The notes: generated by a model not told the origin, from the letters alone. DNA of 64,000 nucleotides from an uncultured Lewinella sp. (GCA_964558465.1 CAZLEF010000020.1:19723-83722), one strand, 5' to 3'. Positions 11,843 through 27,204 are shown, numbered from the stretch's first letter. Program-made: numbers and translations.

Positions 11843-11904
11843 CAGAATTACACCTTGGGTAAATCGTCTTTCCTGCTCATTGCAGCGATCTTTCTGTCCT
11901 TCCA

Positions 11905-12159
11905 TTAGTGCCTGATAATAATCCATCCTATCGTACTTCCAACGCCCATATTCCCTAAATCTTTTACGCCTTGTGAGTTATCAAAAATGAAGGTAGTAAT
12001 AATTACTCCCAAAAAAGGACCAAGTCCACCAAGGATATGTAACCAATCTGAATGTTCCCAACCAATCTGAAAATTATGGCTCAATACATTAGGCAGCCAG
12101 ATTGACCAGGAAATTCCAAAGCTGATTAGAATGAAAACTATTATTTTTCGGTTGTTCAT
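11905..12159 (-). pseudogene. CPBP (CAAX protease)-family N-terminal fragment
   Basis: 84 aa: FILISFGISWSIWLP...LGGLGPFLGVIITTFIF resembles the N-terminal half of CPBP proteases, but the EExxxR and H motifs are absent. A 38-aa hydrophobic mini-ORF lies just upstream. Confidence 0.35.
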
Positions 12160-12311
12160 TCTTTACCTGTTAAATTCATAAATCATCCAGCCAAAAGTTG
12201 AAATAAACATCAGCCGAAAAGAATGGCAAAACAAACATTATAACAATCAGAGGAATATATGAGGCTATAAATATTTTTACTTCTAATTTCATTCGTGTTT
12301 GTTTTTATGGC

Positions 12312-12329
12312 ACATAACCGGTGTTATGC
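12312..12329 (-). other. Minimal attC-like site (R''-4nt-R')
   Basis: Gene orientation reads TGA-GCATAAC-ACCG-GTTATGT. GCATAAC directly follows the stop of 12330..12989 and is the exact complement of GTTATGC at the 5' edge of that cassette (~12986-12992). Confidence 0.5.
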
Positions 12330-12971
12330 TCAGTTTTGGATTTTTATGTTAATATCATTCAATTTACGAGGAGTCTCTTCTCCAGGTATTATGGCCATAA
12401 TTTTTTCAAATAGAATCTCGTCATTGATTTGAACAATCTGAAGTTTTCTTGAATTCTCAGGTTCAAATCTTCCGCCAGTATTCTTCAATACCAATATCAC
12501 TTCACCGTTTCTGATAATTTTTATTTCATAGGACTTAACCTCGTGATTACCTGACATATCAAATCCTGAAATTCTTGCGACAACACCAGACTGTGCTAAA
12601 AACTCACCTAATGAAATCGTTCCGGAGGTTTTGCGGGCGAATTCAGCCGGCTGATCGGGCCATCGTCTAACGATAATTCTCCGTTTTTCAATGAGTACGG
12701 TGTCATTATTTGTGGTATGGTAGATGAAGAAGTGACTTTCGCCAACTTTCTGTGGGATGTAACTATATCTGCAATCAGTATCTCTGAGTGTAATACTTCC
12801 ATTGTCTGTACTAATGTAAAGGTATTGGCATGCAACTCCTTCGACCACAATAGTTAATGAATTATCAAGACCAGGCCAAGCTGTCGGATAATTTAATTCA
12901 ATTGCTACGTTTTGACCTTGCAGTCTGATGAAAAAGCAGAAAACCAGTATGGCAATTACAAGGTTTTTCAT
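12330..12971 (-). CDS. Secreted hypothetical protein (possibly GldM C-terminal-like)
   Basis: ORF 12330..12989. The probable start is MKNLVIAILVFCFFIRLQGQ (signal peptide). The family assignment is a weak impression only. Confidence 0.45.
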   Translation of the reverse strand: MKNLVIAILVFCFFIRLQGQNVAIELNYPTAWPGLDNSLTIVVEGVACQYLYISTDNGSITLRDTDCRYSYIPQKVGESHFFIYHTTNNDTVLIEKRRIIVRRWPDQPAEFARKTSGTISLGEFLAQSGVVARISGFDMSGNHEVKSYEIKIIRNGEVILVLKNTGGRFEPENSRKLQIVQINDEILFEKIMAIIPGEETPRKLNDINIKIQN

Positions 12972-12986
12972 TGGCATTCCATTGAG

Positions 12987-13215
12987 CATAACGGTTTGCA
13001 GCTTGCCGATGTGGCGGAATTTTAGCTGTAATTCCTAAGGTTGATCAACTGTCCCACAATAAAAAGCAATGTCACTATTAACATTACTTTGTCTTGAAAG
13101 TCAACCGTGTAGTTGGGTGTCATTTGCCATAGCTGTTCGGTTGGCTTGCTGCCGTGCCGCCGTGCATTGGCTTTGCGGGCTGGCTGTTCGGCGGCATGGA
13201 CAGTAAACCGTTGTC
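12987..13215 (-). other. Composite attC-like junction (one E-type palindrome plus remnants of a second site)
   Basis: Gene orientation reads TAA-ATTCACC-GGACAAC-GGTT-TACTGTCCATGCCGCCG...CGGCGGCACGGCAGCA, then AGCCAACCGAAC, then about 120 nt, then CAAACC-GTTATGC. The central CCGCCG...GCTTTGCGGGCTGGCTGTT...CGGCGG block is homologous to sites at 17.8, 19.3 and 25.0 kb. Confidence 0.45.
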
Positions 13216-13223
13216 CGGTGAAT

Positions 13224-14291
13224 TTATTGTTTTATGCGAGTAAGTATTTCTTTACCCGAATCAAAATATTCCGAAATAATATTTTCATACACTATGTCAC
13301 CATTTTCTCCATTTGTAAAAACAATTATCCCTCTTTTTTCCTGTGGCAAAAGAATGATTATTGTGTTTTGCCCTCGGTTTCTTCCAGTATGTGTCAAGGC
13401 ATATCCTCCTTTGGATAAATTTCTTGTCACATTCCACCCTAACCCAAACTCTTTACCATTTTTTAAAACGGCCTGTGTCTTAATCATCTCTAATTGAACA
13501 TCCCCAGACAGGTAATTTCCTTCTAAGATTGCAACTCCAAATCTCCCGTAATCTTTGAGTGTGGAAAGCACCAAATTCGAAGCATTTGCATCATACCATT
13601 TTTCTTTTTCGTATTGAGAACCGTCAGCACGATACCGCTCTGCATAGCGAGTAGTATCCATATTTTTATCCCAGTAAAAGTGAATGTCTTTCATGTCAAG
13701 AGGGCGAAATAAAATAGAATCTACTAATTTTTCTATAGGAATTTGGAATTTACGCTCCAATGCTTTACGAAGGTATTCAAAGCCTTCACCTGAGTATTTC
13801 CATTGAGAGCCGGGCTCAAATGCGAAGGACAATTTTCCATTAGGCTCATTCCCTCTCCAATTAGGCAAGCCTGATTGATGGCAAAGCACATTCCGTGTGG
13901 TTAGTTTTTTATTAAAGGCATCGTTTGCAACGTCAGGATCAGTCCAATAATTACAGAGGGGTTCATCGAGTTGCCATTGTCCGCTGCTGACCAACTTTAA
14001 AGTAGTCGTAGATATTAATGGTTTGGTCAAGGAAGCCAAGTTAAAAAGCGTATTTAAAGGTGCAGGCGAATGATATTCGATATTGCCAAAAATTTTGACT
14101 TGCCGGATTTTGAAATTTTCAATGATACACACCCCGACGGTAGGCACGTTTTCATTTTTCATCCAAGTCAAAATTGGTTCGCTTTTTAAGATTTGTGTGT
14201 GCTTTGGCGAGCACGAATATACCATAAACGCTAATAAGCATATCTGCCAATTTGCAACAGCACACACAAGTTTTATTGATTTTCCTTTCAT
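13224..14291 (-). CDS. Serine hydrolase, beta-lactamase/transpeptidase-like (class C-type fold)
   Basis: 355 aa with a signal peptide, an SxxK motif in FNLASLTKPLIS, and YSGEGFEYL downstream. Confidence 0.8.
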   Translation of the reverse strand: MKGKSIKLVCAVANWQICLLAFMVYSCSPKHTQILKSEPILTWMKNENVPTVGVCIIENFKIRQVKIFGNIEYHSPAPLNTLFNLASLTKPLISTTTLKLVSSGQWQLDEPLCNYWTDPDVANDAFNKKLTTRNVLCHQSGLPNWRGNEPNGKLSFAFEPGSQWKYSGEGFEYLRKALERKFQIPIEKLVDSILFRPLDMKDIHFYWDKNMDTTRYAERYRADGSQYEKEKWYDANASNLVLSTLKDYGRFGVAILEGNYLSGDVQLEMIKTQAVLKNGKEFGLGWNVTRNLSKGGYALTHTGRNRGQNTIIILLPQEKRGIIVFTNGENGDIVYENIISEYFDSGKEILTRIKQ

Positions 14292-14366
14292 TTTTTTAAA
14301 TGTTTAACTCAAAAATGAAAGACACATGTGGCAAATAGAGGTTGCTTTTTTCATTTTTTTAATTTC

Positions 14367-14497
14367 ATCGAACGGTTTGAATATGGGGCGTTTGGCATTT
14401 AAAAACACCAACCTGTCAATCCGCTATATATTTTATTAATTGTTACCATCTTCACATTTAGCACTATCTGCCAAATGCACTATATTTTTTGTTGTGT
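14367..14497 (-). other. attC-like site (131 nt)
   Basis: Gene orientation reads ACACAAC-AAAA-AATATAGTGCATTTGGCA...TGCCAAACGCCCCATATT-CAAACC-GTTCGAT. It starts 8 nt after the stop of 14502..15473. Confidence 0.55.
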
Positions 14498-14501
14498 GTC
14501 G

Positions 14502-15455
14502 TTATTTTATTAATTCTAAGAACCAATTGACCAACTCCTTCTCATCAACAATATTCCAAGTATGAGGGTGTCTGCTCCCATCATTCTGGTAACCTTTATC
14601 TTGAGTGATTATCAATTCCACCTTCTGGTTATCTCGAATTTTAAGTTCATTTATCAAGGCAGCTAAATCAATTGCATTCATGGAGTAAAAGTCCTTTCTT
14701 CTTGTTTCTATCCACCAGGTTACATCTGGTTCAGTATAGCATCTAATGGCTATATTCTTCAATAGATTAAGATTTGAACCTCCATTTGCGCTATAGCAAT
14801 ATGGTGAATAATCTATATATGCTTGTAATGTGTCTGTTGGAGTTCCACCAAGATTTCTCTCAAGATAGCCTGAGACCCACGTGCCCTCGTTTGCTGTAAT
14901 TGGACTGAAGTTAAGCTCCTTCGCTTTTACCATTTCTTTGTGAAAGCGAACCATGTCCAACGGAGAATCACATATGGCAATTGCTTTGGGAACCAATTTA
15001 TGTTTTGACTCAGTACTTTGACCAAACATTGCCAGTTTTATAGCACGTGTTCCTTCTAAAGACATCCCACAATAGAGTAGGTTACTATCGGGTATGTTAT
15101 AAGTTATAAGCACTTCATAGATGTAATTTTCAATTTCATGAACTTTACTATTCTCAAAAAAGAATTCAAGTCTGTTTTCCGTTGTTGCATAAAGTACCGC
15201 AAGTTGTTTCGAAAGGGCATAATCTATGATAAAATCAGCGTTTACTGTATCTCTTCTTGCATGAGTGAAGACAATCAATCCTTTTATTTTTTCGATTTTT
15301 GGCAGCCAGAGCGTGTATCCTCTGTCAACTTTTGGGATGCTAATCCCTTCAGTTAAAAGGATATCGCCTTCTACATGAACTTTCTTGTCAATTACTCTTT
15401 GAGCAAACAAGTTTGACATGCAGAAGATACAGAGTGTTAAAATTGCTGCTTTCAT
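14502..15455 (-). CDS. Secreted hypothetical protein, possible alpha/beta-hydrolase fold
   Basis: ORF 14502..15473 (GTG). The likely start is MKAAILTLCIFCMSNLFAQ. There is a GMSLEG nucleophile-elbow-like segment, but no firm family match by eye. Confidence 0.45.
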   Translation of the reverse strand: MKAAILTLCIFCMSNLFAQRVIDKKVHVEGDILLTEGISIPKVDRGYTLWLPKIEKIKGLIVFTHARRDTVNADFIIDYALSKQLAVLYATTENRLEFFFENSKVHEIENYIYEVLITYNIPDSNLLYCGMSLEGTRAIKLAMFGQSTESKHKLVPKAIAICDSPLDMVRFHKEMVKAKELNFSPITANEGTWVSGYLERNLGGTPTDTLQAYIDYSPYCYSANGGSNLNLLKNIAIRCYTEPDVTWWIETRRKDFYSMNAIDLAALINELKIRDNQKVELIITQDKGYQNDGSRHPHTWNIVDEKELVNWFLELIK

Positions 15456-15474
15456 CCTGTTTTTTAATGACACA

Positions 15475-15625
15475 TCACTCCTTAATGTCTACTGGTATCT
15501 TCTTAGTCGCTTCGCCAATAATTTCTAAGCTGCGAACTATCGCCCGTTTTAGCACTTCGTTATCAATCAAGGCATCTTTGGTCATATCTGGCGATATGCT
15601 GTTATTGATAAATTCACAGTAACTA
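15475..15625 (-). pseudogene. HepT/DUF86 (HEPN toxin) internal fragment
   Basis: The translation ...EFINNSISPDMTKDALIDNEVLKRAIVRSLEIIGEATKKIPVDIKE* carries the RxxxxLEIIGEA signature of DUF86. The N-terminus is cut by MITE copy A, and the C-terminal RxxxxH half is missing. Confidence 0.5.
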
Positions 15626-16104
15626 CCCAGTCCCCCAAAGCTATAAAAAATTGACGGAATAAGGTTAACCTGGCAGGCATAAAATCCAGGGCCTTATGCC
15701 AGGAATTTCCAGCCCATACGCCGGGATGAGAAAGACACGCCTGATCCGCAAGATTGAGGCGCTGGAAAGGTATTGCCGGAGTCTGGAAAAAGCCAACCAG
15801 GCAGGTATTTCGGGAGGTGAAGTTTTGTACATGGACAAGGAGAAAGCCAGGTTGATCGGGGAATTACTGAAGCGGGATCGGCTGGTAGCTTCCCTTTCCA
15901 AATTGGTCAGAAAATAAATGTATTCAATGCACTCAAAAATATTTTTGAAGGAATTATCCCGCCAGTCCAGTATCCGAAATTGGAATAAATAAAAACACTC
16001 CAAAATTATCCGCAAAATATTATGGTTTATTTTTGAAGCCTCCGGAAATCATCTCCGTGAGATTAGGCCCGCTTGTTTTGTTAACTTTTGGACTGGGTAA
16101 TTAC
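15619..16104 (+). mobile_element. MITE-like element, copy A (486 bp) with ~15-20-bp terminal inverted repeats
   Basis: The left end is GTAACTACCCAGTCC and the reverse complement of the right end is GTAATTACCCAGTCC. It is about 90% identical to copy B outside a divergent central segment and carries a coiled-coil ORF remnant (15696..15917). Confidence 0.65.
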
Positions 16105-16139: not shown

Positions 16140-16766
16140 TCATTTGTCGCCAAACTTGACCAGCCCCCAAACTCCTAACAGCCATAGTCCCAAAGCAAGC
16201 GGCCAGAATATTTCCAGATTATAATACAAGGCTTGGGCAGTTATAAGAGATGGGATAGATAATATAAAAGCCAATCCGACCCACCAGGGTGCTATTTTTT
16301 TTCTCATTATCGCTACACCTGCAATGATCCAGGCGAAGAAAAAGCACCAATTATACAGGAAGAGTCCCGACAACCAAATTAAAGTAGCTTCCGATTCTAA
16401 TCCATCATTTATCGCCTTCGGGTCCATCCCTGAAGCCACAAAGCCTGCGGATAAAGCTCGAAAACCAGAAATAAAGGCGATAAACGCTGTACCCAAAACA
16501 CCCAATACCGTTACCACGATTCCTGTGTTAGGAGACCGCTCTGCGATTCGTTGTCCCATGAAAATGAAAGTGGCCACAAAAAAAGGAACACCAATCGTCA
16601 TAATCAGGCCTTCGTATGAACTGACCCAGTAAAGTTCACCCGGAAGCGTTCCAATTCCAAATGCCCTTACTACCGATGCAATAAAAAAGCATAATGGCGC
16701 AACTAACGCCAGCATGGGCAATCGCTTCCGAAAAGTTCTCACCCATTTGTCATTCTGATTTTCCAT
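16140..16766 (-). CDS. Integral membrane protein (about 6 TM), unknown function
   Basis: ORF 16140..16931. The upstream third is encoded by the attC-like palindrome, so the start MENQNDKWVRTFRK at 16766 is more likely. Confidence 0.55.
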   Translation of the reverse strand: MENQNDKWVRTFRKRLPMLALVAPLCFFIASVVRAFGIGTLPGELYWVSSYEGLIMTIGVPFFVATFIFMGQRIAERSPNTGIVVTVLGVLGTAFIAFISGFRALSAGFVASGMDPKAINDGLESEATLIWLSGLFLYNWCFFFAWIIAGVAIMRKKIAPWWVGLAFILSIPSLITAQALYYNLEIFWPLALGLWLLGVWGLVKFGDK

Positions 16767-16811
16767 TTTGTTTTGTTTTAAATTAATTATTCCTGTTTTC
16801 TTCTTATTTAC

Positions 16812-16941
16812 CGCTAACGTTTGTGTTTCTGCAGTGGTGCCTTCCCGAAGCCGCGTCCTGTCCCACGACACCAAGCGTTGAGCGAAGATAAAACTAAAAA
16901 CCAACTCGTCACGGCACCATTGCAGAAACATTTTGTTGTGA
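16812..16941 (-). other. attC-like site (~130 nt)
   Basis: Gene orientation reads TCACAAC-AAAA-TGTTTCTGCAATGGTGCC-(~71 nt)-GGCACCACTGCAGAAACA-CAAAC-GTTAGCG, with an 18-bp stem carrying one mismatch. R'' matches GTTGTGC at 17797-17803 in 6 of 7 positions. Confidence 0.6.
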
Positions 16942-16948
16942 GTAGTTT

Positions 16949-17770
16949 TTACTTGTAGTATTCATATTCAAAAAAATCCGGAATAAATCCACGGACACTT
17001 TTTAGTAGTCCGTTAGGGTAATAGAAGTATGTCAATTTTGCATTCCACGTCCTATCATTCATAAACACCTGATTGATGTCAGAGCTTATGATTTGTCCCC
17101 TTGAATTAAAACTGTTGGCACATACAGTATTGCTGTTAAAGTGTTGAAGGTCTTTGTAGTCGGAATACTGAACTTTGGATGTGTCTTGTCCGACAACCAT
17201 TAGCCCGTCTTTAAGCTTGGGCTCCCAAGTATATCCATACCATCGTTTTGTATAAAAGTCGTTTTCATACTCTGTTGTCATGTGATAAACTATAAGAGTG
17301 TCTCTTCGTTGGGTTTTTATTGATTTAAAGGGCTCGTAATAATAGAGAGTCTCATAATTTGGGGAATCGGGGAATTTCTCTTGGAAGTCCTGAGACTTTG
17401 TCAACCTGCCCAATGAGTCATAGAAGAAAAGTGTGTAGTCAACTCCGAAAGAACCGTCAAAATAAGCAGTAGAGTCAATGATTTGAATCAATCTCATGTT
17501 TGAGTCATATTTGTAATGCTTTGTCCCTTCTATTCTTTTATTTTTTCGAGTTTTCCCATTGTATGATGCGCTGTATCTAATAGAGCGAATTTTACGTCCA
17601 TCTTTGTCCAAGTAAGTTATCTCTGCTAAATCTCTTGGTGAGTTCTCAAATCGAGTGATTTTTCTCACACTCCTATTTTTATAAATGCTGTCTGGTTGGG
17701 AGCTATTTTCGCTTTGTCCGTAAACACTACTTGATAAAGTGAAACATATTAGTATTAAAACTTTATTCAT
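16949..17770 (-). CDS. Secreted protein with YD/RHS-like repeats
   Basis: ORF 16949..17815 (GTG). The likely start is MNKVLILICFTLSSSVYGQ. Repeats are of the form HYKYDSNMRLIQI and FFYDSLGRLTKS (YDxxGRL-like). Confidence 0.5.
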   Translation of the reverse strand: MNKVLILICFTLSSSVYGQSENSSQPDSIYKNRSVRKITRFENSPRDLAEITYLDKDGRKIRSIRYSASYNGKTRKNKRIEGTKHYKYDSNMRLIQIIDSTAYFDGSFGVDYTLFFYDSLGRLTKSQDFQEKFPDSPNYETLYYYEPFKSIKTQRRDTLIVYHMTTEYENDFYTKRWYGYTWEPKLKDGLMVVGQDTSKVQYSDYKDLQHFNSNTVCANSFNSRGQIISSDINQVFMNDRTWNAKLTYFYYPNGLLKSVRGFIPDFFEYEYYK

Positions 17771-17796
17771 CGGTCTGTCCTGTCCGTAAAAATTGC

Positions 17797-17884
17797 GCAC
17801 AACGGTTGCACTCACGCATACCGCCGCCTGCGTTGGCTTTGCGGTTTAGCTTTAGCGGCGGTTGGTGTGAGTGTGGTGTTGGCT
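17797..17884 (-). other. attC-like site (88 nt)
   Basis: Gene orientation reads AGCCAAC-ACCA-CACTCAC-ACCA-ACCGCCGC-(27 nt)-GCGGCGGT-ATGC-GTGAGTG-CAACC-GTTGTGC. It overlaps the last 24 codons of the TIR ORF. R'' is the exact complement of GTTGGCT at 19289-19295. Confidence 0.7.
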
Positions 17885-19269
17885 GCCTTCTTTATTTCTC
17901 TGTGAGCCATAAACAGAATTATCCCCCAAAATAAATGATGAGTTGATGATGAAATCTGTTGTAAGGTCATGCCATTTCCAGCAAATATACTTAAAAAGTC
18001 ATAAACGCCAAACTTTGCATTTGAAATATTTATTATTACAAAAGTCAAAGTCAATATCGCAAGCAATCTTTGCTTTTTTAATATTACAATCAAAATTATT
18101 GAAATGCCTAAAAATATAAATTGAGAAAAATTCCATAACATTTCGTTGATTATCCTTTGCTTGTCAATATCAATATTATCGTATCCAAATTTCCATATAA
18201 ATTCCGAAAACAACGATAAGATAATTTGAAGCATACAAAGTAATTTCCCAAAAAAATTTCCGTATAGGCTAAACAAAACAGAAAAACATAACATTTCAAT
18301 TAACATCGGTAAAGTAATGACTAATGGGTCATAAAACAAAGTAATTATACTGTTATTTTCATTTATATTATCAGCCCAGTATCCGTAATAGACAAAACCA
18401 AGAAACACTAAAATACAACTTATACACCCTATCAATAATAAATTACTTTTACCTTCTAAACTAGTAAAATTAAGTCTTTCCATTGCTCTTGAAAATACAC
18501 CATGCTTTTCAGTAAGATTGTTTTTATGAAAATTTTGGTTAGTGAAGCCTAAAAAAATAAGGAGTTGCTCTTTATCTTCAGCAATTTGAATCCTTTTTAA
18601 TAAATAAGGAATACTTTCAAAACTAAATTCATTACCCTTCAAAATAAATATTTTTCTTTCACCTTTACTGTTAATGTAAGTTTCATTATAAAAAGTCTCA
18701 TATTCTGATTTTACCCATTCTGACTCCATTGAGTTTTTTGATACAATCAACAGGAAATGTGTACTATTCTTTAACGCATTGCTTATATTAGTAAAATAGG
18801 AGTTACCAATATTACTTTTTAAAGACTCATGTGAATAAAAAACCTTGTAACCATGTTGCGTCAGGTGTTTCCATATTTCATCAGCAAAGTGCGTATCAAA
18901 CGACGAATAGCATAAGAAAATATCATATACTTTTTCACCCACTTCTGCAATTAACGTTGTTTTGTTTATTTTTTCGCTTACTGTTTTCTCAATTAAATTG
19001 TTATCCGGTATCGCTTCTATCAGTTGAAGCAATGAATGCCTTATCCTATTTTTTTCAATTGATATACCTCCTTCGCTTATTATTCCAGCATTAATTTGTT
19101 TCTTTAAATCTTTGTGCCTTCCTGAAATTAAAATTAAATTATTATATATATCATTTAAGTCAATGGTGATGCTTTCATCATTATATAGTTTTAATGAAGT
19201 AATCATTTTCTCTATTAACAAATCTATGCTATCTTCTTGGATTAGTATCTTTAAATTTTTCTTATCCAT
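17812..19269 (-). CDS. TIR-domain protein with N-terminal helical adaptor-like module and C-terminal multi-TM region
   Basis: 485 aa. The TIR core is YDIFLCYSSFDTHFADEIWKHLTQHGYKVFYSHESL...LLIVSKNSMESEWVKSEYE. Residues ~275-460 form about 5-6 hydrophobic helices. Confidence 0.8.
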   Translation of the reverse strand: MDKKNLKILIQEDSIDLLIEKMITSLKLYNDESITIDLNDIYNNLILISGRHKDLKKQINAGIISEGGISIEKNRIRHSLLQLIEAIPDNNLIEKTVSEKINKTTLIAEVGEKVYDIFLCYSSFDTHFADEIWKHLTQHGYKVFYSHESLKSNIGNSYFTNISNALKNSTHFLLIVSKNSMESEWVKSEYETFYNETYINSKGERKIFILKGNEFSFESIPYLLKRIQIAEDKEQLLIFLGFTNQNFHKNNLTEKHGVFSRAMERLNFTSLEGKSNLLLIGCISCILVFLGFVYYGYWADNINENNSIITLFYDPLVITLPMLIEMLCFSVLFSLYGNFFGKLLCMLQIILSLFSEFIWKFGYDNIDIDKQRIINEMLWNFSQFIFLGISIILIVILKKQRLLAILTLTFVIINISNAKFGVYDFLSIFAGNGMTLQQISSSTHHLFWGIILFMAHREIKKAANTTLTPTAAKAKPQSQRRRRYA

Positions 19270-19379: not shown

Positions 19380-19390
19380 GATTGTTCAAT

Positions 19391-20548
19391 TCATTCATAC
19401 ACTTGGATGTTTCGGAATTCAACATTATCGCTTCCCGTCCCAGTATGACGCCGATTGATTGTCATTTGCAATTTTGAAATGACCTTTACAGGGATACCGA
19501 CTTGCCCGAATTCAATATTAATATCAACAGGGTATCCTGCAACAATAGTTTTTTTTGTGCCGTAGTAAGCACCTCCACCAGTTTTCCCCCCTATTTCGAT
19601 ACTGATAGGATTAAATTCTTTACCAGAATCCCCGTCAAGAACTCTTGTTTTATCCTTTCCAAAAACACTTAATTCTACATCCATATCCTCGCTTTGAACT
19701 TGACAATTACATCGAATAATTTGCTAAAATTGACTACATTTTTTAAGTTTAAAAGTTAATTCTCCAACTTTTGCTGTCTCTCTTGGGGTTAATTTAGGTG
19801 CTTCTGATCTGGCTTTGCTTACAGTTTCTTTTTGACCTATTCCATTGCCTATAAGGATGTTCCTAAATTCTACCTTATTACTTCCAGTTCCTGTATGGGC
19901 TTGATTAATCGTCATTTCCAGTTTTGAAATATTTTCAACTGGAAAAGTCACGTCTCCAAATTCAATTAATATATCTACTGGGTATCCTTCGACAATAGTT
20001 TTTTTCGTTCCATAGTATGCACCACCTCCGGTTTTTCCACCAATTTTGATACTGATAGGATTGAATTCTTTACCAGAATTTCCATCTATTATTCTCGTTT
20101 TATCCTTCCCGAAAATGCTTAAATCCACATCCCTATCTTCACTCTTTACTTTACAGTGGCAAGAAATGAATTGCTCGGTTTGATTACAACCTACAAGGTT
20201 AAAGGTTAAATTACCGCTTTTTGCCGTACTGGAATTAATTTGTTGAGGTGTTTCGGGTTGAGGTTTAACTATCTCCGGTTCTGGGTAGATTTTTTCTTCA
20301 CTTGAAACTGGCAAGTCTTTTCTTGGTTTTGAATTGGCTTTGGGTTCAGTCGAATTGCCTTCTTCTAATGACGATTGTGTTTGCGAGCCAGTATCTAAAG
20401 AGACACCTCGTGTTTCTTTTTCAGTCATTTGCTGTTTCTCTTGGGCTTCTTGGTATTTTTGATATTTTAAAACTAGAATCCCACCAACAACTGTGATGAA
20501 AAGCCCAATAATTATCTCTTTCAAATAATTTTTCCGTTCAGTTGACAT
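19391..20548 (-). pseudogene. Membrane-anchored protein with two ~95-aa tandem domains, interrupted by one in-frame TAG
   Basis: ORFs 19724..20548 and 19391..19684 are in the same frame. The junction reads ...ELTFKLKKCSQF*QIIRCNCQVQSEDMDVELSVFGKDKTR, which parallels LTFNLVGCNQTEQFISCHCKVKSEDRDVDLSIFGKDKTR in repeat 1. Confidence 0.6.
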
Positions 20549-20580
20549 TTTGTTTTATTTTGTTTGTCAATTTTATTTAC

Positions 20581-20646
20581 CGCTAACGGTGGCACACACG
20601 ATGGAGCGAGCGAATGCGAGCTATGGAAGTGTGTGTTTTGTTCGCT
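20581..20646 (-). other. attC-like site (66 nt)
   Basis: Gene orientation reads AGCGAAC-AAAA-CACACAC-(29 nt)-GTGTGTG-CCACC-GTTAGCG. R'' is the exact complement of GTTCGCT at 21436-21442. Confidence 0.7.
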
Positions 20647-20666
20647 TCCGGTTTCTTTTTTATTCT

Positions 20667-21413
20667 TTACATCCCTCCACATAACGTCATTCTTGTCATA
20701 ATGTGGATACAATAAAAATAGTTTGCTACTTTATATAATGCATCTGAAACATCTTCTAAGACTTTTTCATCTTCTTGAAAAGCGTCCGTTATTTTATCAT
20801 TTTCATCAACCTTCACAAATACTTTTTGCCCAAATTTCCTTTTTTTATCCCCGCTTTGGATTTTCTCCATAAATTTTGTCAATGTATCAGCATCAAATCT
20901 TTTCATAGTGAATTTATGCTTGTCCAAGGAAGTGTCTTTTGTCACAGGATATCTAAAAAAAGAACTATCCCTATCATACTTACAAATGATTGGAAATAGA
21001 TTTGAGATTTTTTTTACCTCTCGCCAATCTCCTTTCGGGGCAATTTTTTCTAATTTTTTTTTATTTTGTTTCAATAACTGGTTAAGCCAATAATCGTAAA
21101 GTTCATCAATCCAATGACAAGTATATAATGGTCTCCAAGCTCCGCCTGTAAAAATTTTGGGGTTATCACTTTCAAATGAATCTTGATCATAGTTAATTTC
21201 TAACTTTTTATGAAAAATCACTATTAGTGACTTCAGATATAATTCAATAGAATGCCTAAATAGAAAATTTTCGGGCATCTCCCTTTGTTGAATGACATCA
21301 TAATGTTCATGATGATTATTTCTTAAATGTTCAGCACTTTTAAAATAGGAATCACCCGTAATCCCAAATCCGAAATCGGGATGTAGTTCAATCCCGGACA
21401 TTGTGTACATCAT
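20667..21413 (-). CDS. Hypothetical alpha-helical protein (weak HEPN-like impression only)
   Basis: 248 aa with an N-terminal helix NFLFRHSIELYLKSLIVIF and a later SSFFRYPVTK. I could not find a canonical Rx4-6H motif. Confidence 0.4.
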   Translation of the reverse strand: MMYTMSGIELHPDFGFGITGDSYFKSAEHLRNNHHEHYDVIQQREMPENFLFRHSIELYLKSLIVIFHKKLEINYDQDSFESDNPKIFTGGAWRPLYTCHWIDELYDYWLNQLLKQNKKKLEKIAPKGDWREVKKISNLFPIICKYDRDSSFFRYPVTKDTSLDKHKFTMKRFDADTLTKFMEKIQSGDKKRKFGQKVFVKVDENDKITDAFQEDEKVLEDVSDALYKVANYFYCIHIMTRMTLCGGM

Positions 21414-21435
21414 ATTATTTCTTTTTTCTAATGGA

Positions 21436-21500
21436 AGCGAACGGGGGCATGGACGACATGGCGACGTTTAGGAGCCATGTGTGACCATGCAATGTTGTCA
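21436..21500 (-). other. attC-like site (65 nt)
   Basis: Gene orientation reads TGACAAC-ATTG-CATGG-TCACA-CATGGC-(11 nt)-GCCATG-TCGT-CCATG-CCCCC-GTTCGCT. The TGA of R'' is the ATPase stop codon. Confidence 0.7.
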
Positions 21501-22673
21501 GATTTTTCCTTGCATGTTTAATAGGACATACGGTTTCATCATTGGATTATAAAATCTGTATCTAATGTTCTTACCATTTCCTAGTTTTTCAAGGAGTAAT
21601 CCCCTTTCTTCATGGCATAATTTACCTAAATTATGGGTAATATTTTCACGAATTGAGTTTTTTCCAGTAATCCGATTAAATTCTTTTAGTATCTCACTTG
21701 TCGTAAAAGAATCAAACTCATCTGTTTTACACATTGCACATGCCTGTACAACAGGTTTCCATTGAGAATTAATAGAAGATGATTGAATTGCTTTTCTATA
21801 GGATTCTCGTAGTTGTTCGCTGGCATTCTCTATTGCTTGTCTAATGGCAGAATCTAATTCAGAATTACCAACTTTGGTATAATTACGGTCAAGTGCCCTT
21901 TGAATTGAGTATTTACATAACAAATGTGTATAATGAGGAAATCCAGAAGAAAATTTTACTATTTTACCAGTTATTGATTTTATTATTTCCATCTCTAAAT
22001 CAGCAAACCCTTTCTCGACAATCTCTGTAAGTTCAACATCTGACATTCTTGGCATCTTTATTTGCATTAAGCATCTTTCTAATGATTGATGATTTCCAAT
22101 CAAATTGCTTACATTTTCAGCGATACCAACAATCATTATTTTTATATTCCTAGAATTGTCCGACAAAGATTTTATCAAATCAGCGAACTGAACCCTAGTA
22201 GGTTGATTTTTTATATTATCAAATTCGTCAAAAATGAATAAAAATTTGTTTGAAGGGAATTGTCGCAAACAATTATATATATCGTAAGGCATTAGATTTT
22301 CAATGCCTGCTATATATTGGTTTAGCGAAATTAATTTTTGTCTGGTTTGTGGATTAAATCCAATTCCCTGGGTAGTTGTCGTGAATTGAACTTCACTTAA
22401 TGCCCGTTCCCATAAGTTCTTAAAATTATCAGAACTTCCACAGGTTACTTTTACGCTATAAAGATTTGTAATCTTTTTTTGAGTTATATTTGCCATTGAT
22501 GTTTTTCCTACTCCCCTTTCGCCAAATAAAATAGCATGTTGCCCCTCTTCATTCATAACTTGAACAATCCTTTTTAACTGCTCAATTCTACCCCGAAAGA
22601 AGTTTTCCTCCTTAATCGGAGACATTGGTGAGAATACTGTACTTAGTTTAAGTTTACGTTCTTCAATGTTCAT
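21498..22673 (-). CDS. AAA+ ATPase, ORC/Cdc6-like with C-terminal winged-helix-like region
   Basis: 391 aa with Walker A GERGVGKTS and Walker B LFIFDEFD, then a helical lid and a C-terminal RYRFYNPMMKPYV segment. Confidence 0.8.
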   Translation of the reverse strand: MNIEERKLKLSTVFSPMSPIKEENFFRGRIEQLKRIVQVMNEEGQHAILFGERGVGKTSMANITQKKITNLYSVKVTCGSSDNFKNLWERALSEVQFTTTTQGIGFNPQTRQKLISLNQYIAGIENLMPYDIYNCLRQFPSNKFLFIFDEFDNIKNQPTRVQFADLIKSLSDNSRNIKIMIVGIAENVSNLIGNHQSLERCLMQIKMPRMSDVELTEIVEKGFADLEMEIIKSITGKIVKFSSGFPHYTHLLCKYSIQRALDRNYTKVGNSELDSAIRQAIENASEQLRESYRKAIQSSSINSQWKPVVQACAMCKTDEFDSFTTSEILKEFNRITGKNSIRENITHNLGKLCHEERGLLLEKLGNGKNIRYRFYNPMMKPYVLLNMQGKI

Positions 22674-22700
22674 TTTTCATTAATTTAAATTTCTGACAAT

Positions 22701-23285
22701 TTATAGCCGTGCATACGCCGCCCCCACCAACACTCCGCCTTACCCGAAGCAGTTAAGCGGGTGGCGGATGAACGAAGTTGAACTATGCCGCTTTACCCGA
22801 AGCAATTATGGGCATCGCATCCACTCCCCTGGTCTAAGACCGTGAAAAACCCAACTGCAAAATACGTCCCTTGCAGCGGAAAAGCAAGGATGGAGGCTTG
22901 AACCATAGAAAAAAATGCCATTTATCAACGATTTATAGGTGAATTGGATGCGTTCGGCAAAAAACCTCCAGCCGGGTATGTTCCCCGGAAATAAAACTGG
23001 ACAATTATCAGGTTTGGAGCTGTCACTAATCACGAAAAGTGTACCAGCAATTTGCACGGAATGCGCATGCGGCGGGCCCGCTGTCTCCATAGGAGTCCTT
23101 TGGACCGGGAGCAAGGCCCTTCTGGCTGGAAATGGATTGACCAAACCGGGGAACCGCCAGGAGCATGGCCGTTCCGTCGATGACTTTTAGCCTGGAGACC
23201 TTGCCCGGATCTTTTTCCACCTTTTGGCGTCAACCAGCCCGCAAGCGGGCGGGTAAAAAGGTGGACCAAAACCGGCGGCTTACGC
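22701..23285 (-). other. GC-rich ORF-less element U, copy 1 (attI-like site or structured RNA candidate)
   Basis: It is homologous to 26590-~27100, near-identical over the first 76 nt and recognisable for about 400 nt. There is no conserved reading frame, and indels break every frame. In gene orientation it ends ...GCACGGCTATAA directly before (A)TTGTCA, the 5' edge of the ATPase cassette. Confidence 0.45.
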
Positions 23286-23405
23286 ATCTTCGGCTAAAAC
23301 AGGAGTTATTTCTTTCGAATCACACGCTAATTTATGTGATAACTTATCTGCAATAAATTTGCAATTTCCAGTTTTTGAGTAAAACAACAATAAGTAAGTT
23401 TTCAT
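23280..23405 (-). pseudogene. Flavodoxin-like N-terminal fragment (41 codons)
   Basis: MKTYLLLFYSKTGNCKFIADKLSHKLACDSKEITPVLAEDA* has the flavodoxin YSxTGNT-like start. The frame ends where element U copy 1 begins. Confidence 0.4.
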
Positions 23406-23465
23406 TTGTTTTAAATTTTTATTACGTTTCTAAATATTATAATTGTGTCGTCACGTTAGCTGTTG

Positions 23466-24395
23466 TTATTCTATTTCAAAATGTTTCATTACTCGTAAAA
23501 CTCTCAATGTATTCCATCTACTTGGTTTGCCTGCTTTCTCCATGTTGACGTGTACCTGACCGGGATGAGCAGCTTGCATATTCCAAGATCCTTCATTGTT
23601 TCGTTTTGACTTCAGTACATCAATCGTTGCTTTCATTCTGTCGTCCCATTCAATTCCGGCATATTGAAAAAAATCCATAGCTCGAAGAATATCATATTTC
23701 CATCTGCATGGATAAGTCAACTTCAAAAAGTCTTTATTAATAATTTGACCTGTTCGGTCAGACAAAAATAGTTGATGTAACAAAATAAATTCAATTGAAC
23801 TTTTTTGAGCGCTGAGAATTGCGTTCTTTCTATAGGTGTATCCGGCTTTTTGAAATTCTGTAAACCCTTCAAGTACGGATATTGTCGAGTGTAAGGAACT
23901 GTGTTTAGCTCCACTTCTTGTTGTCCTGCAGTTAAAACCTCCATCTGGCATTATCTCATTTAATAAACAGTCAATAATGGAATGCATCTTTTTTTCAGAT
24001 GTTTTGAAATACGAAGCGTAATTCAAAAACATTCCATTTACACAAACATCACTATGCTGTGATGTAGATGGCCCCAATTGAATTCCTCCATCATCTGCTT
24101 TGTTGTTTTGTAAAATCATCTCTATAGTTTCTTGTACAATCTCATTGCTTGAAGGGAGATTTAAATTGCGAAGGTCAAGTAAAGTGTAATGAGTGGAAAT
24201 CCATTTTGGTTGATAAAATCTATCGCCCCAATGACCGTCTGATTTTCGTTTGGATAAGTATTCATGACCCCAGCCTTCATTCGATATTCTGGCCTGAAGT
24301 TTCTTTTTTTCAACTCCCAACAAATCACGCCACACTTGGTATTGTATGGACACATCTCCTTCCAGCAGCCAATCGATGATTTGTTGATTGCTCAT
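23466..24395 (-). CDS. Prenyltransferase/terpene-cyclase-like alpha/alpha-toroid repeat protein (hypothetical)
   Basis: ORF 23466..24419 with likely start MSNQQIIDWLLEG. It has recurrent SDGHWGDR, PDGGFNCR and NEGSWNMQ motifs typical of such repeats. Confidence 0.45.
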   Translation of the reverse strand: MSNQQIIDWLLEGDVSIQYQVWRDLLGVEKKKLQARISNEGWGHEYLSKRKSDGHWGDRFYQPKWISTHYTLLDLRNLNLPSSNEIVQETIEMILQNNKADDGGIQLGPSTSQHSDVCVNGMFLNYASYFKTSEKKMHSIIDCLLNEIMPDGGFNCRTTRSGAKHSSLHSTISVLEGFTEFQKAGYTYRKNAILSAQKSSIEFILLHQLFLSDRTGQIINKDFLKLTYPCRWKYDILRAMDFFQYAGIEWDDRMKATIDVLKSKRNNEGSWNMQAAHPGQVHVNMEKAGKPSRWNTLRVLRVMKHFEIE

Positions 24396-24398
24396 TAC

Positions 24399-24912
24399 TG
24401 TAACTATCCAGTCCCCCAAAGCTATAAAAAATTAGCGGAATAAGGTTAACCTGGCAGGCATAAAATCCAGGGTCTTATGCCAGGAATTTCCAGCCCATAC
24501 GCAGGTATGAGAAAGACTCGCCTGATCCACAAGATCGAGGCGCTGGAAAGGTATTGCCGGAGTCTGGAAAAAGCCAATCAGGTAGGTATTTCGGGAGGTG
24601 AAGTTTTGTACATGGACAAGGAGAAAGCCAGGTTGATCGAGGAATTATTGAAGCGGGATCGGCTGGTAGCCTCCCTTTCCGAACTGGTTCGGCAGTTGCA
24701 AACGGAAAACGAAACCCTTGGGGAGCAACTGGAAGAACTGGTCAAAGCCAAACTGAAGGAATTATCCCCCCAATCCAGTATCCGAAATTGGAATAAATAA
24801 AAATACTCCAAAATTATCTGCAAAATATTATGGTTGATTTTTGAAGCCTCCGGAAATCATATCCGTGGGATAAGGCTGGCTTGTTTTGTTAACTTTTGGA
24901 CTGGGTAATTAC
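24399..24912 (+). mobile_element. MITE-like element, copy B (514 bp)
   Basis: It has the same termini as copy A (GTAACTATCCAGTCC ... GGACTGGGTAATTAC). It contains a 107-aa coiled-coil ORF (24477..24800) that is truncated in copy A. Confidence 0.65.
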
Positions 24913-24976
24913 TAAGGTACTTCTGTATGACATTGATTACTTTTTCTTTTATATTTTTTTATTATTTTTCAGTTTC

Positions 24977-25056
24977 AGCGAACTGTGGGCTTGCCGCCAT
25001 GTGTTGCTTTTGCAGGCTGGCTGTTTAGCGGCATGGACAGCCAGTCGGAGTTCTAC
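24977..25056 (-). other. attC-like site (80 nt, E-type)
   Basis: Gene orientation reads GTAGAAC-TCCG-ACTGGCTGTCCATGCCGC-(29 nt)-GGCGGCAAG-CCCACA-GTTCGCT. R'' is the exact complement of GTTCTAC at 26583-26589. Confidence 0.6.
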
Positions 25057-25106
25057 AGTTTTATTTGTTTTCAATGATTTATGCAAGTAGGGCGCCGGAA
25101 CAGGCA

Positions 25107-26561
25107 CTACAAATACTCATCAATCAACTCAATTAGTGCCATTGTAATCCTTGTTCTTTCTCTACTTGCATCATCATAAGATATTGTATTTGAATTCTCT
25201 TTTGTTCTTAATTCAGAAAATTGTGAATTATAAAGGATTGCCTTATTACGAGCTTCGTTATCCTCTACATCTTTAAAGGATGAAAGCAAGAGTGTCAAAG
25301 ATTTACCTATCTTTCCCTTTGAAATTAAATCTTGAATTTCTTTTTTTGAATGATTTGAGCTTAATGAATTGATATCAGATAATGGTTTGTCATGTACTGT
25401 ATCAATTGAAACATTATTTGAATTAACTACAATTGTGCTATTGCTAATATTTTCAAATTTATTGCCCATAACTGTTTCATTGATTTCAAAGTGAAAAAAA
25501 TCTTTGTATTTAAGTAGAGTTTCTTTTGAAATTTTACCATTCGCAATTTCATGAATTGGAAAATCAATTTTATCAAAATGAGTTATGTGCTCATCAAAAT
25601 CGCCCTCAATGACAAGTTCGCTTGAGCGAGAATATCTAAGAGCATAATCTTCTAACCAATTTACTGCCCTTTTCAATCCGTTATCCTTCCGATCTGGGTT
25701 AAAATAGCAAAAACTCATATTTTGATCTAAAATATTATTTCCTCGATAATACAAAATTACAATGCTTGAATACAAATCTTGATTATTTGAAGGTTTAATG
25801 AATTCTAGATTTTCAATATAAATACAATAGCGAGGGATTTCTTTATTAGATTTAATCAAGGAAAGTTCATTGGGAATAATTTTCAATCTGCCAATTAAGT
25901 TAACAATAAACCCTCCATTTTCTTTTATTTTTGAAATACAATCACGATATAAAGACATTTCAACAATTAGTGGTATTCCCTCATGACTTACACCTGTTGA
26001 AGATGCTCCTAAAATATAACATTCTCTACCATAAATAAATTTATTTGCCAATCTTAATGAACCAATACCTCCTTTTATCATATTCTCTTTGCCCTCTGGT
26101 GTATATTCTATTAACTGTTTTTGGGTATATCCTTCCTCACCAAGAGAATTTAAAATACTTTGAAACTCTTCAGAAGAATTTCGAAGGTTGTAACTTATCT
26201 GAGCATGAATTTTTTTTTCAAAAGCATCTTTATTGTAGAATAATGCTAGCCTTTGTGCATATCGTCTGCTATATATAGATTCATAGGTATAAAATAAGCC
26301 AGGAGATGTTGGTATCCATTCAGTCAAATGAAATTTTTCAAGCCTTATTATTTGCTCATTGTGACATTCATTCTCCAAGATAGATTTCCAAAAATCAAAA
26401 TTACTATTGAATATCTTGTCTGGGTTGTTTCTATTTTGAGTTTTGTTTTCAATATGAGAATACATATAAACATTTAGTTGATTTTTAATAAAATCAACTA
26501 AGTCACTTCTTACTATGTAAGCTTGATGACCTTTATCTATTAGAATATCATCTGCATTCAT
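25107..26561 (-). CDS. Large hypothetical protein with C-terminal helical adaptor-like module shared with the TIR protein
   Basis: ORF 25107..26690. The first 43 codons are encoded by element U, so the start MNADDILIDKG at 26561 is more likely. The C-terminus AILYNSQFSELRTKENSNTISYDDASRERTRITMALIELIDEY aligns with LILISGRHKDLKKQINAGIISEGGISIEKNRIRHSLLQLIEAI of the TIR protein. Confidence 0.55.
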   Translation of the reverse strand: MNADDILIDKGHQAYIVRSDLVDFIKNQLNVYMYSHIENKTQNRNNPDKIFNSNFDFWKSILENECHNEQIIRLEKFHLTEWIPTSPGLFYTYESIYSRRYAQRLALFYNKDAFEKKIHAQISYNLRNSSEEFQSILNSLGEEGYTQKQLIEYTPEGKENMIKGGIGSLRLANKFIYGRECYILGASSTGVSHEGIPLIVEMSLYRDCISKIKENGGFIVNLIGRLKIIPNELSLIKSNKEIPRYCIYIENLEFIKPSNNQDLYSSIVILYYRGNNILDQNMSFCYFNPDRKDNGLKRAVNWLEDYALRYSRSSELVIEGDFDEHITHFDKIDFPIHEIANGKISKETLLKYKDFFHFEINETVMGNKFENISNSTIVVNSNNVSIDTVHDKPLSDINSLSSNHSKKEIQDLISKGKIGKSLTLLLSSFKDVEDNEARNKAILYNSQFSELRTKENSNTISYDDASRERTRITMALIELIDEYL

Positions 26562-26589
26562 CTTTTTTATATTTTTCGTTTCGTAGAAC

Positions 26590-27100
26590 TTATAGCCGTG
26601 CATACGCCGCCCCCAACAACACTCCGCCTTACCCGAAGCAGTTAAGCGGGTGGCGGATGAACGAACCCCGCTACAAGGGGGCCGATGCAATTATGGGCAT
26701 CGCATCCAACTCCTTGATCTAAAGGCATAAAAACTAAGGTGCAAAATACACTTGTTGCGGCTGAAAAGCAAGCTTTTGGACTCAAACGTATGAGAAAGAA
26801 CGTCATCAATCAATGATTTATCCATGAATGGGTTGCGTCAGGCAAAAACATCTCCTGCCGGGCATATTCCCCGGAATTAAAAATACAACATGATAAGGCT
26901 TGAGGCAATGGATGAGCATGCGGCGGGGCCCGTTGCCTTGGTTCAACGGGGTTTTAACCAGAAATAGAAAGGCGAATCCGGATAACTGGCTGGAGCGTCC
27001 AGACGCCACCCCGGCGGCCCCGGCTTCATCACACCCACAAATAAAATTACCATTGTTGCCCAAAACCGGACATACCCTGTCCAATATCGGACAGAAGACG
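26590..27100 (-). other. GC-rich ORF-less element U, copy 2, at the array/core junction
   Basis: In gene orientation it ends ...GCACGGCTATAA directly before GTTCTAC, the 5' edge of cassette 25107..26561. The outer boundary toward 27.1 kb is fuzzy. Confidence 0.45.
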
Positions 27101-27204
27101 GTATCCGGAATTTAATTAAGTTATTGATAATTAATATATTACAACAAAGGCATGTTTTTTGATCGCTTCTTTCAAAAGACCGTTAACCAAATCCTCTTTC
27201 AACC

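Follow-up and report, generated by a model that had tools for sequence, protein, structure and literature searches.

An eroded array of integron-type gene cassettes with non-canonical sites and IS91-family remnants in an uncultured Lewinella sp.

Introduction

Integrons are defined by the integrase IntI and its structure-specific recognition of the folded attC site, and almost all knowledge on them comes from Proteobacteria. A stretch of 64,000 nucleotides from an uncultured Lewinella sp. (GCA_964558465.1, CAZLEF010000020.1:19723-83722), which as a whole is called the window in the following, raises the question whether gene cassettes are captured in this lineage as well, and by which kind of recombinase and site. 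In this window, an AT-rich island between a tRNA-Ser gene and an ABC permease gene carries closely packed genes, most of which are followed by imperfect palindromes. An earlier note, made from the sequence alone, had proposed that the island is a CALIN-like integron array (CALIN, cluster of attC sites lacking an integron integrase).

The island was found to be an array of about 12 cassettes, which is sedentary, integrase-less and partly eroded (Table 1). That its units are mobile cassettes recombined at G|TT is highly probable. For the full statement, an eroded integron-type cassette array including a non-canonical recombinase, the probability is estimated at roughly 55%.

Recombination sites and cassette closure

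In the minus orientation, seven structured sites (a to g) could be identified, all on the same strand and within 14.3-25.1 kb, located 0.8-3.5 kb apart and each after a minus-strand open reading frame (ORF). This is the arrangement by which CALINs are recognized, namely at least two attC-like sites in the same orientation, at distances below 4 kb and each behind a promoterless ORF. Sites b to f fold as R''(xxxxAAC), 4 nt, stem ... stem, 5 nt and R'(GTTxxxx) around a variable centre, so that both the location and the shared layout of the palindromes described in the earlier note could be confirmed.

Site positions were derived from structure alone and then used for a closure test, in which the free positions at the start of a cassette are compared with the R'' box of the site at its own end. 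Over the four consecutive junctions from b via c, d and e to f, 15 of 16 free positions are complementary (P = 1.1e-8 for p = 0.25 per base, or 1.6e-6 for a generous p = 0.35), whereas R'' and R' taken from the same physical site agree at just 0-2 of four positions. Because complementarity holds between sites and not within them, the units are explained as former circles opened at G|TT and not as terminators or repetitive extragenic palindromic (REP)-type repeats. Units with G|TT boundaries whose first bases complete their own R'' box are found here and in five further cases from other loci.

All seven R'/R'' pairs listed in the earlier note are present, but some of their edges are not bounded by an attC-like site. 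The GC-rich stretches in front of GTTCTAC (26589) and ATTGTCA (22700), which had been taken as sites, are 3' ends of IS91-family elements. The complementarity of GTTATGC and GCATAAC is real, the GCATAAC box at 12.3 kb belongs to an 18-nt hairpin instead of a full site, and the site at 13.2 kb has kept the shared core and lost its GTT. This core, GCAAAGCCAAYGCA.GGCGGC, occurs in the 13.2-, 17.8-, 19.3- and 25.0-kb sites, as had been noticed before, and likewise at 6909-6822 of locus L002 from a Lewinellaceae metagenome-assembled genome (MAG; loci from other genomes are numbered L002 to L031).

A covariance model (R1) was built from nine sites of the island type. Within the window it matched the minus strand of the island only, with nothing on the plus strand at E < 0.01, and it recovered sites outside its training set, namely h1 (E = 1.3e-4) and g (E = 1.2e-3). 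Matches to g and to site a (E = 0.3) are weak, and h2 was obtained at E = 0.66. Two versions of a grammar scan (AAC-spacer-stem...stem-spacer-GTT, +/- a folding-energy threshold) gave 70 and 39 matches and were rejected as too permissive in the GC-rich flanks. In predicted folds the bottom strand is more stable in five of six sites, by 0.6-5.5 kcal/mol; for site f the opposite was obtained.

Cassette exchange between genomes

By exact look-up, most of the cassette proteins of the window were absent from the protein collection searched. The protein encoded at 14502-15473 in cassette 9 belongs to a 90%-identity cluster, the representative of which lies on the Logan contigs L022-L026. These stem from a genome with a GC content of about 0.35 and show a different gene neighbourhood. 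The window from 15474 to 14371 is 97% identical to them over 1105 nt, and the homology stops exactly after ...CAAACCGTT, at the GTT of site g (CCGTT|), where the window continues with CGATG and L022 with ATGGC. In L022, the opening of the cassette (GTTGTGT) is the exact complement of its own ACACAAC box. The same cassette is thus present in a different genome and bounded by its site, which provides direct evidence, at the level of sequence comparison, for the exchange of a cassette between genomes of about 0.35 and 0.53 GC. The comparative test suggested in the earlier note, a search for cassette-level variation at the GTT boundaries, was positive through this match.

Closure was also observed in L002 (GTTGTGT/ACACAAC), in L003 and L006 (GTTGCAGGC/GCCTGCAAC), in L028 (GTTATAGCC/GGCTATAAC), in L016 (GTTATAGGG/CCCTATAAC) and in L031, where a five-gene cassette is enclosed between GTTAGCATC and GATGCTAAC. 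R1 gave no matches in L016, L017 and L022-L028; as closure is observed for cassettes in some of these loci, the model covers only one subfamily of sites. A second subfamily with the core GTGGTTAATTGARCATTCTACCTYGYATCAACTTTTGTG was seen at L016 14558-14700 and L029 12195-12330, on unrelated contigs, and R1 misses both. L007 was discarded as a chance match in a GC-rich genome.

Comparison with the attC sites of class 1 integrons

As a class 1 reference, integrons from eight plasmids were used, seven of which carry cassettes beside intI1, and seven attC sites were extracted. All seven have spacers of 5 and 6 nt and an L box made up of 3 bp, one unpaired base and 6 bp. Sites b to f and the sites of L002 and L003 have spacers of 4 and 5 nt, by which the excess of one nucleotide on the R' side is retained. 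According to the predicted folds, no conserved extrahelical base is present in the L box of the island sites, which begin with 5-8 uninterrupted pairs and share no common bulge. The extrahelical bases that the earlier note had proposed to look for in folded bottom strands are therefore not conserved here. In canonical integrons these bases are contacted by the IntI insertion, as seen in the structure of VchIntIA with VCR.

Recognition by covariance models was not reciprocal either. On the class 1 attC sites, R1 gave no significant match (best hit aadA1 with 8.6 bits and E = 6.5, filters off). The converse model R2, built from the seven class 1 sites with about five effective sequences as a stand-in for the attC model of IntegronFinder, found none of the sites b to g in the window with filters off; its only match in the island was the 18-nt hairpin at 12312-12329 (E = 1.9), and on the Lewinella-type loci it found nothing. 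Copies of its own sites in other plasmids were recovered at E ~1e-11, and the failure of R2 is weak evidence, because the model was built from only seven class 1 sites. Rfam contains no attC family. The island sites clearly represent a family different from class 1 attC. Of the R''/L''/L'/R' organization claimed for them, the layout holds, but a strict attC identity could not be shown in view of the 4/5-nt spacers and the missing reciprocal recognition. Likewise, the proposal of a CALIN-like integron array stands as far as an integrase-less array of G|TT cassettes is concerned, while its membership in the integrons proper is unproven.

Tyrosine recombinases in the window and beside related arrays

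For the detection of integrases, the window was searched by phmmer with an IntI1 sequence that is 100% identical to the plasmid copies. No intI was found in the 64 kb, and the only tyrosine recombinase is an XerC/D-like gene at 59324-60283, which scores 316 bits to XerC (TIGR02224, cutoff 335) vs. 113 bits to the integron integrase family TIGR02249 (cutoff 265 bits). This gene probably encodes the chromosome dimer resolvase and is probably unrelated to the array. The earlier statement that no tyrosine recombinase lies in or beside the array was therefore correct.

Beside related arrays, tyrosine recombinases could be detected. In L022, the shared cassette starts 35 nt past the stop codon of a C-terminal recombinase remnant with the tail ...SPLD..., which is 43% identical to residues 262-330 of IntI1 (E = 2e-16). 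Such remnants are located at L022 5437-5700, L028 10001-10462, L029 10001-10270 and L031 4721-4993. A search with the L022 remnant gave 42 proteins (P0248-P0289), several of them on long contigs, all of which are C-terminal fragments of 51-153 aa with 50-100% identity. In L028 and L031, the remnant is followed by a conserved motif, G|TT and a cassette obeying the closure rule; in L029, cassettes follow the remnant but without motif or GTT, and closure holds at 7 of 9 positions. L027 contains a full-length but frameshifted gene of about 630 aa, and L017 an intact recombinase gene of 343 aa. The residues SPLD in the C-terminal tail mark the recombinases of L017, L022, L027 and L028 as one type.

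These proteins differ from IntI. The 343-aa protein of L017 reaches 216 bits and the recombinases carried by IS91-type elements (see below) 161-170 bits against TIGR02249, all below the family cutoff, and the insertion of about 40 aa in the catalytic domain of IntI is absent from all array-adjacent and IS91-borne recombinases that were aligned. In a comparison with PDB structures, they are about equally close to archaeal XerA (4a8e) and VchIntIA (2a3v) and much farther from XerD. It has been described that the IntI-type insertion "is not fully conserved" within the "integron-like" subgroup of tyrosine recombinases (PMC8138268).

The conserved motif GCGKA...TATAA|GTT is common to the 20-25 nt before the crossover in platform sites and IS91 ends. 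In the related loci, it follows closely on a XerA/IntI-like recombinase gene of the same orientation, or it lies at the 3' end of an IS91-type element with such a recombinase, and this platform site (GCGTATAATA..|GTT) may play a role similar to that of attI. The order of recombinase and array resembles the integrons with inverted integrase, in which intI points toward the cassettes, known from Treponema denticola, Chlorobi, Planctomycetes and Cyanobacteria. In L017, L022, L027, L028 and L031, the recombinase gene or its remnant faces the array, and the first cassette begins a few tens to about 400 nt past the recombinase stop codon. The inverted integrases are, however, bona fide IntI with the extra domain, which the recombinases described here lack.

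The best surviving alternative is an ordinary CALIN, i.e., true but divergent attC sites, a canonical IntI located elsewhere or lost on arrival of the IS91-type element, and Xer-like neighbours that are incidental. The island shares with sedentary chromosomal integrons and CALINs the tandem, co-oriented, closely packed and mostly ORFan cassettes, the AAC/GTT palindromes with crossover at G|TT, a core common to some of the sites, the absence of an integrase nearby and a cargo of toxin- or defence-like genes (HepT fragment, TIR, STAND ATPase); its architecture and the closure rule, by which the cassette start complements its own R'', are exactly those of integron cassettes. The L022 remnant is closer to the C-terminus of IntI1 than to the IS91-borne recombinase, and attC families are lineage-specific, so that the failure of a small class 1 model is unsurprising. 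Furthermore, the literature describes integrons, In0 and CALINs from Bacteroidota and their relatives (PMC9024848, PMC8618304, PMC9668308). This alternative is nevertheless considered less probable than the favoured explanation, since no IntI is present within the window, every recombinase directly upstream of such arrays lacks the IntI insertion and stays below the family cutoff, and the sites deviate by spacers that are one nucleotide shorter on each side (4/5 vs. 5/6 nt) and by the missing extrahelical base of the L box. The host phylum with its very few described integrons is a further difference from known CALINs.

IS91-family remnants and intact relatives

Two GC-rich stretches at cassette heads were identified as 3'-end remnants of an IS91-family element; like two inserts resembling miniature inverted-repeat transposable elements (MITE-like), they had been overlooked in the earlier note. 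Both copies are diverged, but their last 75 nt are near-identical and end in GGCGGCGTATGCACGGCTATAA, followed by GTT or ATT. A scan of public genomes and metagenomes for this terminus yielded a Lewinellaceae MAG (L002, L003), a Lewinella MAG (L004) and metagenome contigs (L005, L006), and in L005, L002 and L003 it is located 3' of an IS91 transposase ORF. The intact element has a size of about 2.5 kb and consists of genes for a 283-aa tyrosine recombinase and a 413-aa IS91-family Y2 transposase plus about 300 nt of non-coding sequence. The transposase of L003 matches NF033538 with 455 bits, and the intact relatives in L002, L003 and L016 encode the Y2 transposase. Copy 2 is 83% identical to the intact element of L003 over the last 125 nt. 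The copies in the window retain only the last 350-400 nt, and tblastn shows no more of the Y2 HUH transposase in them than a 12-aa trace; without this gene, they are remnants and not elements. Other identities of the GC-rich repeats were rejected, as Rfam gave neither a group II intron nor a ribozyme or structured RNA at the gathering score and at E up to 5, and no similarity to tyrosine recombinases was found that would point to remnants of intI with attI.

IS91-type elements with a recombinase gene of 276-283 aa upstream of the Y2 gene are located at L003 4450-6950, L002 947-5431, L016 9860-12320 and L017 9880-12375. The IS91-borne recombinase has more than 7800 homologues at E < 1e-20, mostly on short contigs, which suggests a very abundant repeat. 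In one IS91-type copy of L002, the recombinase gene is split by a three-ORF insertion (3149-5346), the layout of which resembles the IS66 family by eye. In L003, a 445-aa ORF (1028-2365), a transposase as judged by eye, is situated in the central loop of a cassette site.

The positions of the element relative to the cassettes are exact. In L002 and L003, a complete site (…spacer|GTTGAAC) borders it directly on one side and the GTT of the following cassette on the other; in the window (as a remnant) and in L016, it has ordinary chromosome on one side and the first cassette on the other, and in L017 an IS91-type element takes the position of the first cassette behind the intact 343-aa recombinase gene. 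It starts with GTTGAAC (GTTGCAC in L017), and a GTTCAAC box (GTGCAAC in L017) is located about 85 nt before its right end. Behind this box come 4 nt, then an imperfect hairpin and finally CGGCTATRA|GTT. The box is the inverse of the left end, GTTGMAC TAAACCGC. In its outline, the element thus resembles a cassette that possesses a site of its own.

This association could also mean that the units are non-autonomous passengers of IS91, inserted repeatedly 5' of a resident GTT by the Y2 (HUH) transposase, without any tyrosine recombinase. Such passengers would agree with the cassette-like start and internal box of the intact element, with its constant abutment on GTT, which corresponds to the GTTC/CTTG target preference of IS91, and with its position at the head of the arrays in the window and in L016. 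On the other hand, L022, L028 and L031 contain cassettes obeying the closure rule beside a tyrosine-recombinase remnant, with no IS91 nearby, and assembly of these arrays by the Y2 transposase alone is therefore unlikely. The variable bases of the AAC box pair with the 5' end of the same cassette, which fits the reconstitution of a site on a circle better than a fixed target, and the spacer measures 9 nt at the IS91 end vs. 5 nt in the cassettes. Overall, an origin of the units as IS91 passengers is improbable, and far less likely than an ordinary CALIN.

Mobile elements within cassette arrays are known from other systems. As for IS91/ISCR elements with integrons, an element with Y2 transposase lies inside a cassette array and has an attC-like structure at its 3' end; the element described here differs in carrying its own tyrosine recombinase, in its exact G|TT-bounded cassette positions and in heading arrays (window, L016). 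ISCR1 of complex class 1 integrons does not mark the boundary of a cassette but is located beyond the 3'-conserved segment. IS1111-attC insertion sequences and group IIC-attC introns, which are directed to attC, are similar in being found repeatedly and precisely at cassette sites, as is the case here for five or more junctions that differ in the cassette downstream. They are distinct in that the transposase belongs to another family, the insertion is at the crossover point and not inside the site, and no group II intron signal was obtained with Rfam. For ISCR28, attC sites located at the gene or immediately behind it have been published (PMC12772301).

Cassettes, cargo and erosion

The features of the island and its borders are listed in array order in Table 1.

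Table 1. Features of the island and its flanks in array order, with cassette openings and R'' boxes.
Feature	Position	Strand	Genes, sites and remarks	Opening/R'' box
MacB/FtsX-type ABC permease	27205-29592	+	Chromosomal flank	
IS91-family 3'-end remnant, copy 1	~26590-27110	-	Array head, abuts chromosome; clear homology 26930-26590	
Cassette 1	24977-26589	-	484-aa protein (25107-26561) with C-terminal EAD11 (Pfam, 2.5e-16); weak site a 25056-24977	GTTCTAC/GTAGAAC
Cassette 2, eroded	23281-24983	-	MITE-like copy 1 (24912-24400), 309-aa ORFan (23466-24395), 41-codon ORF truncated by IS91 remnant; without own site	GTTCGCT (24983-24977)
IS91-family 3'-end remnant, copy 2	~22701-23285	-	Clear homology 23079-22701; internal GTTCAAC box kept; end ...GGCGGCGTATGCACGGCTATAA	
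Cassette 3	21436-22700	-	nSTAND/AAA ATPase gene 21498-22673 (Pfam nSTAND1, 7e-7); site b 21500-21436	ATTGTCA (22700-22694)/TGACAAC
Cassette 4	20581-21442	-	ORFan 20667-21413; site c 20646-20581	GTTCGCT/AGCGAAC
Cassette 5	19289-20587	-	274-aa gene 19724-20548; site d 19379-19289	GTTAGCG/CGCTAAC
Cassette 6	17797-19295	-	Gene for EAD11-TIR-transmembrane protein 17812-19269 (Pfam TIR_2, 1.5e-15; EAD11, 1.2e-12; PADLOC matches ThsB-like); site e 17884-17797	GTTGGCT/AGCCAAC
Cassette 7	16812-17803	-	Lipoprotein-like ORFan 16949-17770; site f 16941-16812 (130 nt)	GTTGTGC/TCACAAC (3 of 4 free positions)
Cassette 8	16140-16818	-	Membrane-protein gene 16140-16766; own site gone through MITE and deletion	GTTAGCG (16818-16812)
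MITE-like insert, copy 2	15616-16104	-	Terminal inverted repeats GTAAYTAYCCAGTCC; internal deletion	
HepT-like (DUF86) toxin gene fragment	~15478-15588	-	36 codons left; Pfam PF01934, E = 9e-6, profile positions 15-47 of 120	
Cassette 9	14367-15480	-	ORFan gene 14502-15473; site g 14497-14367 (131 nt); 5' junction degenerate in the window	GTGATGT/ACACAAC
Cassette 10	13224-14373	-	Beta-lactamase-fold serine hydrolase gene 13224-14291 (PF00144, E = 4e-42); fails to close on the R'' box of h1	GTTCGAT (14373-14367)
Two degenerate sites in tandem	12986-13219	-	h1 13219-13134 (conserved core kept, GTT lost; repeat shared with the 25.0-kb site); h2 13118-12986	
Last complete cassette	12312-12992	-	GldM-C-terminal-like gene 12330-12989; ends in 18-nt R''-ACCG-R' hairpin GCATAAC/GTTATGT (12329-12312)	GTTATGC (12992-12986)/GCATAAC (4 of 4 free positions)
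AT-rich tail	11850-12311	-	84-aa membrane-protein fragment ORF 11905-12159; no site after it	
tRNA-Ser(tga)	11755-11843	+	ARAGORN; Rfam tRNA, 57 bits; chromosomal flank, distal array end	

The remaining cargo consists of ORFans, and the content as a whole is typical of cassettes. The earlier note had pointed to defence-like cargo, and the TIR protein, the STAND ATPase and the HepT fragment bear this out, although the finding surprises less than was assumed, as defence cassettes in chromosomal integrons are already known (bioRxiv 10.1101/2024.07.02.601686). The ORF of the TIR protein extends through most of site e, by which its last ~24 residues are encoded. In cassette 5, a tandem partial duplication (19405-19704 vs. 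19855-20154 at 75% identity, region 19391-20154) gives rise to a second ORF of 97 aa (19391-19684) past the stop codon of the 274-aa gene. For the 41-codon ORF at 23406-23281, a flavodoxin identity was rejected for lack of Pfam support.

Erosion of the array is due to the two MITE-like inserts and several deletions, by which some sites (those of cassettes 2 and 8) were removed. The MITE-like element has a length of about 500 nt and is present in two copies of about 94% identity (24400-24912 and 15616-16104), each within a cassette and with terminal inverted repeats GTAAYTAYCCAGTCC. Copy 1 contains a coiled-coil ORF of 107 aa on the plus strand (24477-24800) without a family match.

Genomic setting

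The GC content is 0.27-0.42 within 12-27 kb and 0.47-0.61 in both flanks, and apart from the 107-aa ORF in the MITE-like insert all sizeable ORFs of the island are located on the minus strand and closely packed. The AT-rich character and the gene orientation described in the earlier note could thereby be verified. A Bacteroidota-like genome had also been assumed correctly. The best named relatives of the ABC permease are found in Saprospiraceae and Lewinellaceae MAGs (64-65% identity; another relative reaches 78%), which places the host in the Bacteroidota, as a Saprospirales-like bacterium. Gene order around the permease in relatives was uninformative, as this family has many paralogues and the nearest relative (78% aa identity) is surrounded by other genes. 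An Rfam scan of the window gave the tRNA only.

The array does lie next to tRNA-Ser, as stated before, but no tie to the tRNA gene could be found. A conventional genomic island at tRNA-Ser, with the palindromes as terminators or REP-like repeats, would account for AT-rich DNA directly beside the tRNA gene and for palindromes just past stop codons, but it is practically excluded, as the 3' end of the tRNA is not directly repeated at the far border of the island, no island integrase is present, the hairpins lack T-runs, terminators cannot yield complementarity between unit start and AAC box together with non-complementarity within a site, and one unit moves alone between genomes.

Two small observations concern the flanks. 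At 27139-27188 on the plus strand, between the IS91 remnant and the start of the ABC permease gene, a weak reversed match to the site model was obtained (TTACAAC AAAG ... AGACC GTTAACC; 13.5 bits, E = 0.07), which may be due to chance or may represent a relic of a target site. A 35-nt sequence at 39664-39698 is repeated at 39759-39793, at a distance of 95 nt, is 91% identical to L018 4892-4926, and may be a small dispersed repeat of the lineage.

Discussion

According to the favoured explanation, cassettes would enter as circles, and a tyrosine recombinase would cut G|TT at the 3' edge of a folded imperfect palindrome (xxxxAAC-4 nt-stem...stem-5 nt-G|TT). As the circle opens at G|TT, the first six bases of a cassette supply the partner that its own AAC box lacks. 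The recombinase would belong to the XerA/IntI-like group seen beside the sister arrays and not to IntI proper; its identity, like the circular intermediates, is what we infer from these arrangements. In the window, the platform would have been an IS91-type element, which has decayed to the 3' remnant of roughly 350 nt at the array head, with the second remnant inside the array. Since sites were removed by the MITE-like inserts and by deletions, most of the cassettes can probably no longer move, unless a recombinase is supplied in trans. The array would be a Bacteroidota variant of the integron principle and not an integron proper, because the sites are non-canonical and related arrays start at GCGKA...TATAA|GTT, downstream of an insertion-less recombinase gene or at the end of an IS91 element with such a gene.

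A further step would be a parallel system of the Saprospirales and other Bacteroidota, in which insertion-less recombinases related to XerA and IntI capture cassettes with shortened, bulge-free sites at GCGKA...TATAA|GTT. The IS91 element would be one mobile carrier of this platform, with its 3' end as the equivalent of attI, would itself move as a cassette, and the window would show the fossil of this system. This extension is put forward tentatively and with clearly less confidence than the eroded array with a non-canonical recombinase.

Several points weigh against the proposed role of a non-canonical recombinase. Most of the recombinase genes beside sister arrays are truncated remnants, an intact one being present only in L017, and the pairing of recombinase and site is proposed from sequence comparison. 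The GCGKA...TATAA|GTT motif was picked by eye in 11 junctions, without statistics. The pairing of GTTGAAC and GTTCAAC in the IS91-type element can equally be read as the inverted repeats of an ordinary insertion sequence. Moreover, the integrase search covers the 64-kb window, from a contig with a recorded length of 97.6 kb, and a canonical IntI could lie elsewhere in the genome.

The earlier note had regarded integrons as mostly proteobacterial and the lineage as surprising, but reports of them in Bacteroidota exist already (PMC8618304, PMC9668308), and together with the known defence cassettes this makes both the host phylum and the cargo less surprising. In the searchable literature, no description was found of a combination of shortened bulge-free sites, insertion-less recombinases at the array head and an IS91-family element with its own recombinase in exact cassette positions.

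On the conservative reading, the locus is still a well-documented cassette array in a phylum for which few have been described. If insertion-less recombinases do act on bulge-free sites, cassette capture would have a greater age or a wider distribution than the IntI family, and surveys based on IntI and attC models would miss such arrays. The two would form a second pair of recombinase and site that is experimentally tractable, and a new route to a mobile cassette platform would be given by an IS91-type element with a recombinase of its own, the end of which is available for docking.

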